A stretch of DNA of 55,878 bases from a virus. Its lineage: Duplodnaviria; Heunggongvirae; Uroviricota; Caudoviricetes. Position numbers and translations under genes: made by a program. The stretch is from IMG/VR virus record IMGVR_UViG_2839610755_000009; one strand, given 5' to 3'. Below are positions 39,599 to 41,920 of the stretch, piece by piece (position 1 is the stretch's first letter; every line of letters starts with the position of its first letter). Below the pieces are notes generated by a model. The model saw nothing but the letters and a program-made list of their open reading frames with translations, searched no databases and was not told where the DNA came from.

Positions 39599-40422
39599 TT
39601 TGCAATATCTATGAATTATTCGTGAGACGTATATTAATGAACATTGCAAGGGCTCACAACCAGTAGTGTTGAGAAAATCATCGGGGAAATGAGGCTAAGT
39701 CTTTGAATTTACATAGTACAAAAAAGATACTTTTCCTCATAATGTGAATTAATTTTATGTTTCGTTTGATGATTGGACCGGTCTCGAAAACCGGAGTAGG
39801 GGCAACTCTACCGGGGGGGCAAATCCCCCTCTCTCCGCCACTTTATCAATGACTTATCTCCCGACTTCCCGCCTTGCTTTTCCTAAACAGAACAATCGTA
39901 GAATATTCTTGAAGGGTTAGATCGTCACTGTTTTCTGTTCGATACTGTGACATTCAGCACTTGATTCGCTATGGATCTGACAGGAAGGTTTCGAGCGAAA
40001 ATCTGCAGTTATTCAGTCGTTTTCTTATCGGTCACCATTATTCTTTTAGACATTGATCCTACAAAGCTGCCGCAAAGTTGGTGGTGGGAACTGAAGTTGC
40101 GTAGAGAAGGGGTCAATACCCGGAGGCAAACATGGGCTGGCAAAAGTGTAGCGGTATTAGGCGCAGCTATTTAGCCTAGTTATGTTTTATGAAAACTTGA
40201 TATCATATAAGTGTCTTACTTATTGGCTGTAAATAAGTTTTTCCTAAGGAATTGTTTCTTGAGTATCATTTGTAACTGTAACGGAATTTATAATCCTTTG
40301 CTTTATTGTTACGGTATTTTTTATCACACCCTATTTTTAGTGGTTTTTTATACTGAAGTTTGGCAAAGTGAACTTTATATACATATACTTCATCCTGGTT
40401 TCAGTTAAATTGGGTGGATGAT

Positions 40423-41166
40423 ATGGCAACTACATGTTCAGTTATATTGATTTTGGAGTCCTTTGATGTTTATTTCGGAAAAGAGAGTGTGTTTCTGGAG
40501 AGAGGTTCATCTGTACTTGTCGACTCTAGCTCTAGAGATTTTTTCCTGACATATCCTGAAAGAGTGATAGTGGCGGATTTTGGCGCTGAGTTTATTAGTC
40601 GCTATTTGAAAGCTAATAACTTAAGGGATATTTCTGATTGTAGGGAATATCCATCTTATTTAAAAATAAACTTTGCTGACTTCAGTTTAATTAAAGGATT
40701 AATTAGTTGGGCTAATCACTGTGCTGAATACATAGAAAATTTTGATGAGTCTATTGCTTTTACATGTCTCTCTGCATTTTCTTCTGAAAAACAATTTGGA
40801 GTATTTCTGTTTGGATGTTTGAAAAGCACAGGGGCTAAAGTTAAAACGATTATTCATACGGATTTATCTGCACCATGGCGTCTTAAGGATATATCATCAA
40901 GATTATATCTCAGCGAAAGTTTACTAAAGAGGAAATTGAAAGAAGAGGGGGTATCATTCAGTAAGATCATACTTGATGAGAGGATGCAAATGGCTGAATA
41001 TTTACTCAGCACTCGTTGTTATCCTATTAGTAAAGTAGCTAAGGTCTGTGGTTATGCCAGTGTCTCATACTTTACTTATGTATTTAGACGTTATTTTGGT
41101 GTTTCTCCAAGTCAATACTCTCAGAGGAGTTCAGAAAGTAAAATTCTTACTCACCAGGGAATCTGA
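40423..41166 (+). CDS. AraC-family transcriptional regulator (AppY-like)
   Basis: About 247 aa in AT-rich DNA; C-terminal AraC HTH (VAKVCGYASVSYFTYVFRRYFGVSPSQY). Confidence 0.8.
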   Translation: MATTCSVILILESFDVYFGKESVFLERGSSVLVDSSSRDFFLTYPERVIVADFGAEFISRYLKANNLRDISDCREYPSYLKINFADFSLIKGLISWANHCAEYIENFDESIAFTCLSAFSSEKQFGVFLFGCLKSTGAKVKTIIHTDLSAPWRLKDISSRLYLSESLLKRKLKEEGVSFSKIILDERMQMAEYLLSTRCYPISKVAKVCGYASVSYFTYVFRRYFGVSPSQYSQRSSESKILTHQGI

Positions 41167-41207
41167 TCATTGTTCTTGCCCCCTTATTTCCAGACAGGGG
41201 GTGTATC

Positions 41208-41573
41208 TTAAGTTAACGTTACCCGCTGACGTCGATATTCTCGCGGAGAGCGATAACCCAACGCACTGTGCGGATGGTTTTCATTGTAATGTTCGATCGC
41301 CACTGCAAGATTATGCAATGCCGTTCTTACATTCGGTTTCGGCATGAACGCGATATAGTCTTCCTTCATCGTTTTCACGAACCTTTCTGCAATTCCATTA
41401 CTCTGAGGACTGCTGATTGCCGTTGTGCAGGGCTCCAGATTCAACTCTCTGGCGAACTGCCGTGTTTCATGCGCTCTATACGCTGAACCGTTATCTGTCA
41501 GCCACTGGATGGACTGTTCCGGTACTTTATCGCCAAAGCGTTTTTCTATCGCTCCTAACATGACATCCTGCAC
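41208..41573 (-). pseudogene. IS2-like (IS3 family) transposase OrfB C-terminal remnant
   Basis: 121-aa fragment ...[45 protein letters not shown]...[14 protein letters not shown]; no N-terminal catalytic part. Confidence 0.8.
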
Positions 41574-41920
41574 TGTCGCTTTATCGTAACCTCCCGTGCT
41601 TGCGGCCCAGTCTATGGCTTCACGATCGCAACAGTCCAGGGCGATTCATCTGGGCCAATCCTCGCTCATAACAGGCATTCACTTCAGTCATGGCAGAAAG
41701 GTATGCATGCTGGAGAAGTCGTGAAAGAAAAGAAGACTGCTGCGCCGTTTGTCGTCACGTTTATCTTCATTGGCTATGCAAGTCGTAATACAAGGTGGGA
41801 CAAAACTGAGACACATAAGGCCTCGCAATGGCTTGCAAGGCTTTACATGTTTTGATGTGGTGGGACGTGTGAGCGCAGTGTTGATGGGGTAATGCTTTGA
41901 ATTAGAAGCGGATTCTTATA

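Follow-up and report, generated by a model that had tools for sequence, protein, structure and literature searches.

A probable patE cargo module flanked by insertion-sequence debris in a thrW prophage of Escherichia coli O157:H7

The AraC-family regulators PatE, AppY, PsrA, and PsrB are carried by phages and plug into the gadE acid-resistance circuit of their hosts. PatE of enterohaemorrhagic Escherichia coli (EHEC) is encoded by z0321 on O-island 8 (OI-8), according to a 2024 review (PMC10877973), and another paper places it on prophage CP-933H. As summarised there, PatE activates gadE, gadB, gadC, and hdeAB (Bender et al. 2012), its action at hdeA maps to the interval from -132 to -45, six genes of the enterocyte-effacement locus (LEE) are lowered by it, and a patE null mutant of EDL933 shows changes in host acid-resistance genes; the review also reports binding of PsrB to that hdeA region and to gadE. 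AppY also induces the genes of glutamate-dependent acid resistance (AR2) via gadE. Here we describe positions 39650-41920 of a 55,878-nucleotide stretch of DNA (IMG/VR record IMGVR_UViG_2839610755_000009, hereafter the window), which comes from an E. coli O157:H7 chromosome and covers its thrW region; this block is 100% identical in many O157:H7 genomes. We judge it very probable that this block represents the patE cargo module of the O157:H7 thrW prophage (Sp1/CP-933H, O-island 8), encoding the published acid-resistance activator between flanks of insertion sequence (IS) debris. The present analysis shows the identity of the gene, the domain architecture of its product, and the boundaries and distribution of the module; regulatory targets and expression come from the literature.

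The regulator gene begins at ATG 40423, a start chosen because EDL933 does not conserve the upstream GTG (40414) and because the resulting N terminus, MATTCSVILI, lines up with the opening residues of YdeO, GadW, and AppY. Its product is identical at 246 of 247 residues to WP_000246059.1, the protein of EDL933, Sakai, and FRIK2455, and the lone difference, I106N, is caused by a T>A change at nucleotide 40739. In EDL933, compared here through its newer assembly, WP_000246059.1 is encoded at 309101-309844, and no other AraC-family gene lies in the stretch from thrW to the next integrase. The Sakai counterpart is ECs_0287, which lies inside 'prophage Sp1, lambda-like'. In an array paper on EDL933 the entry for Z0321 reads 'putative regulator (prophage CP-933H), O-island 8', and Z0314 and Z0316 are CP-933H tail-fibre genes, in agreement with the gene order found here. 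From the single AraC gene of CP-933H, taken together with the published association of Z0321, OI-8, and PatE, we infer that the regulator of the window corresponds to Z0321, that is, to PatE of EHEC O157:H7 CP-933H/Sp1, and that the window gene is an allele of patE.

The account of PatE function given here draws on the review and the array papers and concerns the EDL933 protein with I106, one residue removed from the window allele. Z0321 is strongly expressed in an RpoS-dependent manner (mean expression ratio 6, EDL933 array paper), and ECs0287 rises by log2 2.9, or about 8-fold, at stationary-phase entry (array paper). A preliminary description of this block, made from the letters of the sequence, had named a 247-amino-acid AraC-family regulator that could rewire acid-resistance or virulence regulons, a proposal that would fall if the gene were a pseudogene or were not expressed. 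The open reading frame (ORF) is intact, matches helix-turn-helix families in Pfam, and is annotated in RefSeq; published arrays show RpoS-dependent stationary-phase expression, and the literature on Z0321/PatE supplies both gadE/gadBC/hdeAB activation and LEE repression. The functional guess therefore holds and had already been published, and PatE and the annotated IS relic beside its gene were likewise known. The additions made here are minor, namely a base-level map of the module, a serU scar, the recognition of an IS-bounded cargo, the occurrence of the module in viable lambdoid phages, an 84% homologue in a Q-holin slot, and the I106N allele. Taken with the published work, patE would be expressed from the lysogen, in an RpoS-dependent manner, upon entry into stationary phase; PatE would then act at the hdeA promoter region (-132 to -45) to raise gadE, gadBC, and hdeAB, and acid resistance would thereby increase, with a fall in expression of the LEE type III secretion genes. 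Such regulators may aid EHEC survival in the stomach and reduce expression of type III secretion genes, and their correct annotation matters.

The patE product is an AraC/XylS activator with two domains and belongs to the YdeO/GadW/AppY/Rns type. Residues 1-130 form an N-terminal beta-rich domain and a helical linker, and residues from about 138 to 238 form a double helix-turn-helix DNA-binding domain. Over residues 161-238 the protein matches the Pfam families HTH_AraC (60.7 bits, cut-off 26.6) and HTH_18 (58.4 bits, cut-off 33.6), so that the C-terminal segment of about 100 residues with two helix-turn-helix motifs that marks the AraC/XylS family is present. The DNA-binding domain of GadX (3mkl) matches the PatE C terminus in sequence (E 3e-24, 43% identity) and in structure, with a target-normalised Foldseek TM-score of 0.91 and a root-mean-square deviation of 1.8 A for the AlphaFold2 (AF2) model. 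PatE may also have a regulatory or dimerisation N-terminal domain like that of Rns, ToxT, or GadW: CsvR, Rns, and ToxT match it over its full length by sequence, and by Foldseek with E of about 1e-9 and a TM-score of only 0.40, computed on a model whose linker has a predicted local distance difference test score (pLDDT) below 50.

Placement within the family was assessed against a K-12 set comprising AppY, EnvY, YdeO, GadW, and GadX. Full-length identity to PatE is 35% for YdeO, 35% for GadW, and 28% for AppY (over 236 residues); for the DNA-binding domain only, it is 40% for GadX and 39% for EnvY. An N-terminal M..(V/I)CS(V/I) motif is conserved in PatE, YdeO, GadW, and AppY. The NCBIfam model of YdeO aligns with residues 1-235 of PatE, and PatE remains below the equivalog cut-offs of that model (152 bits versus 348) and of the GadX model (109 versus 500). 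Identity is higher to unnamed prophage AraC genes (47-55%) and reaches 84% to one homologue, P0036.

The module that carries patE is mobile among viable lambdoid phages. Positions 39779-41644 (1.87 kb) recur, at no less than 98.7% identity, in two phage genome records, mEp332 and ev099, and the segment shared with other phages begins at 39779-39781; in ev099 it lies between a tail-fibre assembly gene and int. The module is equally conserved in att-lambda prophages (2009C-3133, PCP06102) and in thrW prophages (O157, D10, EC21Z-097). At thresholds of at least 95% nucleotide identity and at least 80% coverage, 645 of the 5426 complete E. coli genomes (about 12%) carry patE, and all but four of the 1,691 places matching patE are chromosomal. 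The module thus has the distribution of a moron, shared across lambdoid phages between the tail-fibre assembly genes and attP, with a GC content of 0.29-0.35 in its cargo against 0.52 in the prophage body. In the finer map, GC stands at 0.29 in the patE upstream region (40175-40422), 0.352 in the patE coding sequence, 0.465 in 39775-40118, and 0.498 in the IS remnant. The earlier characterisation of the whole block as AT-rich holds for about 40119-41170 (29-35% GC) and does not extend to the block overall, whose GC of 0.409 (39650-41920) compares with 0.517 for the prophage body.

Homology points to the source of this cargo. Positions 40181-41160 are 82.6% identical to a segment of a lambdoid prophage designated L017 (Logan ERR273785 contig, 7056-8919). 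The homology starts 9 nucleotides before the stop codon of the gene for the Q antiterminator, spans the intergenic region, and ends 6 nucleotides before the patE stop. The AraC gene of L017, 84% identical to PatE, occupies the interval from Q to holin; a strong hairpin with a T-run follows it, then the holin gene, and the AraC gene may lie within the late-promoter/terminator interval. Homologues of 47-48% identity were also observed in the same Q-lysis interval of E. coli B and JS316.

Both ends of the cargo carry IS sequence. On the left, 40119-40174, probably the right end of an IS630-family element, matches the last 33 nucleotides of a transposase gene of that family and the next 23 nucleotides on plasmid pE100416_79 (89%), and joins a chromosomal spacer to the patE upstream region. 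On the right, the end of an IS2-like element at about 41171, with an IS2-like terminal inverted repeat, lies 4 nucleotides past the patE stop. The degraded IS3-family (IS2-like) transposase C terminus recognised in the preliminary description is indeed there. Its 144-residue in-frame piece matches rve/rve_3 in Pfam, has the NCBIfam IS2 TnpB model as its best match (positions 149-289 of 301; 229 bits versus a cut-off of 597), and is 70.7% identical in amino acids to K-12 InsD 149-288, while the remnant is 70% identical in nucleotides to positions 857-1326 of the 1331 of K-12 IS2. It therefore represents a different IS of the same group, an IS2-group relic rather than a complete two-ORF IS2, and the Sakai annotation calls it 'ISEc48, IS3 family, partial'. 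The IS630-family end, the IS2-like end, and the L017 homology together indicate that the patE cargo (40175-41170) is bracketed by IS elements and derived from a Q-holin slot.

To the left of the IS630-family end lies a fragment of host chromosome. Positions 39775-40118 are about 97% identical to the chromosomal serU locus, with a match in 5423 of 5426 E. coli genomes. In the serU fragment itself the T-loop is destroyed by a TT>GG change, and the EDL933 copy retains the canonical TT; ARAGORN misses the fragment because it is partial. We read 39775-39840 as the putative fossil attachment core of an element once integrated at serU. The density of single-nucleotide polymorphisms relative to EDL933 falls from about 4.8% left of 39780 to about 0.3% right of 39780-39820, and this drop marks the serU fragment as the junction at the left edge of the module. 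A 67-residue ORF at 39971-40174 was considered and rejected as a gene; it gives no Pfam hit and is made of copied spacer and IS end, and the K-12 spacer has no annotated gene. A literature search limited to generic terms found no relevant description of the serU scar.

These flanks are a record of cargo movement, not functional genes, and they suggest the following reconstruction, in which the order of events is the conditional part. A patE-type gene would first have lain in a lambdoid phage, immediately downstream of Q, the gene for the late antiterminator. Insertions of an IS630-family and an IS2-like element would then have bracketed patE, and the cargo would have come to adjoin the serU attR and its flank. 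A serU-integrated phage would have taken up this right flank by aberrant excision, after which the module would have spread by recombination. The 1.87-kb module now travels in the b-region slot, which extends from the tail-fibre genes as far as attP, in several lambdoid phages with differing integration sites. The chances seem to us evenly balanced that the block is, in this sense, a fossil of phage cargo capture, with the serU flank acquired by lambda gal/bio-type excision, patE cut from the Q-holin slot by two IS elements, recombination onto thrW and att-lambda phages, and an I106N change that could alter PatE activity in this O157 sublineage. The serU scar illustrates a way for phages to acquire such cargo from the chromosome. 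The features of the block and its surroundings are collected in Table 1.

Table 1. Coordinates of the patE module and of adjoining features in the window.
Feature	Position	Strand	Remarks
thrW, tRNA-Thr(CGT)	1369-1444		ARAGORN; the only tRNA that ARAGORN calls
LEM-3-like GIY-YIG domain gene	38825-39598; longest ORF extends to TTG 39649	-	Pfam PF22945, 54 bits; RefSeq
serU tRNA-Ser(CGA), 3' 66 nt	39775-39840	+	Anticodon stem to CCA; 64/66 identical to K-12-type serU
serU-yodB intergenic spacer copy	39841-40118	+	278 bp of chromosomal DNA inside the prophage
Right-terminal 56 bp of IS630-family element	40119-40174	+	Probable; 89% identity; rest of element deleted
Promoter-like site	40360-40389	+	TTGGCA-18-TATACT; ends 33 nt upstream of patE ATG
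patE allele (probable)	40423-41166	+	Intact 247-aa AraC/XylS regulator; RefSeq annotates the ORF in O157 genomes
Truncated IS2-like element (IS3 family)	41171-41644	-	Right inverted repeat and C-terminal 144 transposase codons (41208-41642)
Right-end phage arm adjoining attR	41645-41920	+	No credible ORF
attR core of thrW prophage	41921-41966	+	46-nt thrW 3' end, exact repeat of 1399-1444
P4-like element integrase	42078-43310		Second element, 3' of the thrW prophage

Upstream of patE, a consensus scan of the promoter-like site finds matches at 10 of 12 positions. The site sits within a conserved 43-nucleotide block (CTGAAGTTTGGCAAAGTGAACTTTATATACATATACTTCATCC) that differs from the corresponding upstream sequence of L017 at 2 of 43 positions, against a background identity of 82.6%, and we infer that it is the patE promoter. 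The conserved block might also be the phage late promoter PR', although in L017 PR' could lie downstream of the AraC gene as well. As regards the autonomy expected of a moron, the gene has this promoter-like site and array-documented expression in lysogens, and no terminator-like site follows it.

Several observations weigh against the reading of the block as a functional patE module. The equation of Z0321 with the window gene is made through locus, prophage name, family, and gene order, not through a printed sequence. Promoter-like sites in the region are no more numerous than in shuffled sequence, and no terminator-like site was found 3' of patE, where the IS end abuts so closely as to account for this. 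The quality of the AF2 model is moderate (pLDDT 71, under 50 in the linker), and its full-length TM-score reaches only 0.40 because the orientation of the two domains is left unfixed. The exact window protein, with its I106N change, occurs in only 5 contigs of a 15-billion-protein collection. Among nine close patE alleles, that of the window included, the segregating sites comprise 16 nonsynonymous and 3 synonymous changes, a ratio indistinguishable from neutrality (p = 0.41), so that recent purifying selection is not evident. Positive selection on PatE, suggested by the nonsynonymous excess, is rejected on the same test.

The near-neutral allele ratio would suit a decaying passenger, with patE under relaxed selection, its I106N allele impaired or inactive, and the block without present function. 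That I106N is private to a few genomes, that the gene sits amid IS debris with no terminator downstream, and that the AF2 model is least confident at residues 103-132 are in keeping with such decay, which we nonetheless regard as unlikely. The I106N change is absent from all other alleles inspected, those of EDL933 and Sakai included, and the ORF is intact in every one of them as well as in the window. Long-term constraint is apparent in a ratio of nonsynonymous to synonymous substitution rates (dN/dS) of 0.16 between patE and its 84% homologue, the gene persists in the 645 genomes counted above, and the I106 allele has published phenotypes and good expression. Position 106 itself varies within the family, where I, V, N, and W occur, N being the residue of YdeO; for these reasons the substitution is probably tolerated, as judged by family comparison.

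The origin of the cargo beside Q bears on a second and still less likely alternative to the host-directed acid-resistance activator, namely that patE serves the phage by controlling late or lysogeny genes and that the host effects are side-effects of overexpression. Homologues of 47-84% identity directly between Q and the holin gene, in the region of late-gene control, agree with this alternative, as does the derivation of the conserved upstream block from the region downstream of Q. In the module, however, the gene has lost its coupling to Q and is found in the b region, which is dispensable; the 10.6-kb remnant prophage of Sakai and EDL933 retains patE; and the EDL933 null mutant, according to PMC10877973, alters host acid-resistance genes. 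Functional equivalence (orthology) to AppY, which would place hya/appCBA-type anaerobic and phosphate-starvation operons under control of the gene, is scarcely credible, since the slot that patE shares with the appY of DLP12 (right prophage end, following tail-fibre assembly genes), the common N-terminal motif and DNA-binding-domain family, and the like induction of AR2 genes via gadE are set against 28% identity, below the 35% of YdeO or GadW, and a published PatE regulon that, according to the review, centres on gad/hde and LEE. The 'AppY-type' label given to the regulator in the preliminary description stands for its subfamily, N terminus, and DLP12-like prophage slot, and fails if taken to mean an AppY orthologue.

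The module lies, as had been proposed, at the right end of the thrW prophage, with the GIY-YIG gene on one side and the attR core on the other. An exact 46-nucleotide repeat of the thrW end delimits this prophage to 1445-41920, or about 40.5 kb. The same core doubles as attL of the neighbouring P4-like element, and the Sakai annotation sets the Sp1/Sp2 boundary there. By sequence comparison, the prophage interior (2385-37051) lacks a counterpart in Sakai, whose Sp1 measures 10.6 kb; collinearity with Sakai, at more than 99% identity, is confined to the integrase end (1-2384) and to the right end from 37052 onward. The thrW prophage of EDL933 is likewise a 10.6-kb remnant. The GIY-YIG gene is the final gene of the prophage body before the module and is given as context only.

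Beyond the IS remnant, the arm that adjoins attR resembles other lambdoid prophage ends. Positions 41797-41953 are about 80% identical to the right end of the K-12 prophage DLP12, rising to 92.7% over the 96 nucleotides of 41797-41892, and 41795-41967 is common to other thrW prophages with a shorter IS remnant. DLP12 integrates at a different tRNA gene and yet matches this arm, so the end segment seems conserved among lambdoid prophages. A 17-nucleotide direct repeat at 39693 and 41887 (two copies, 82% identical) was treated as chance. Searched against Rfam at a permissive threshold, 39500-42100 contains no known small RNA, the only signal being noise on the tRNA fragment.

Two neighbouring segments deserve brief mention. 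At 36731-38764, opposed tail-fibre assembly and tail-fibre C-terminal ORFs adjoin a Pin-type DNA invertase gene (38165-38764; Resolvase and HTH_7), and the segment is probably an invertible host-range segment; one of its genes is annotated as frameshifted in FRIK2455. In the P4-like element (Sp2/OI-9), 43314-45403 encodes RefSeq 'ABC-three component system' proteins and an AAA ATPase at a GC content of 0.27-0.36, and these genes may form a defence cassette.

Among described systems, PatE (Z0321/ECs0287) of EDL933 and Sakai stands closest to the window gene, with the same thrW-prophage locus between the GIY-YIG gene and the IS remnant, the same length, and all residues but one; the published protein has I106 and resides in a 10.6-kb prophage, whereas the window allele has N106 and resides in a full-length prophage of about 40.5 kb. 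The IS remnant resembles IS2 in its InsD-like transposase C terminus and its right inverted repeat, and differs in lacking InsC/orfA and the N-terminal half of the transposase and in its limited nucleotide identity (70%). YdeO and GadW are the closest of the K-12 set to PatE and act on the same gad target circuit, but they are chromosomal, whereas PatE is phage-borne, encoded by AT-rich DNA, and far under the YdeO equivalog cut-off. AppY of K-12 DLP12 shares with PatE its AraC/XylS family, its place behind tail-fibre assembly genes (tfaD/tfaX) where a lambdoid prophage has its right end, its M..VCSV N terminus, and its input into gadE and AR2; it differs in sequence, at 28% identity, and in its flanking cargo, ompT and envY, and is no orthologue. 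PsrA, PsrB, and the unnamed AraC genes of the Q-lysis interval are, like PatE, prophage-encoded AraC-like regulators, and those of the Q-holin slot, 47-84% identical to PatE, occupy a late-region slot where PatE occupies one in the b region.

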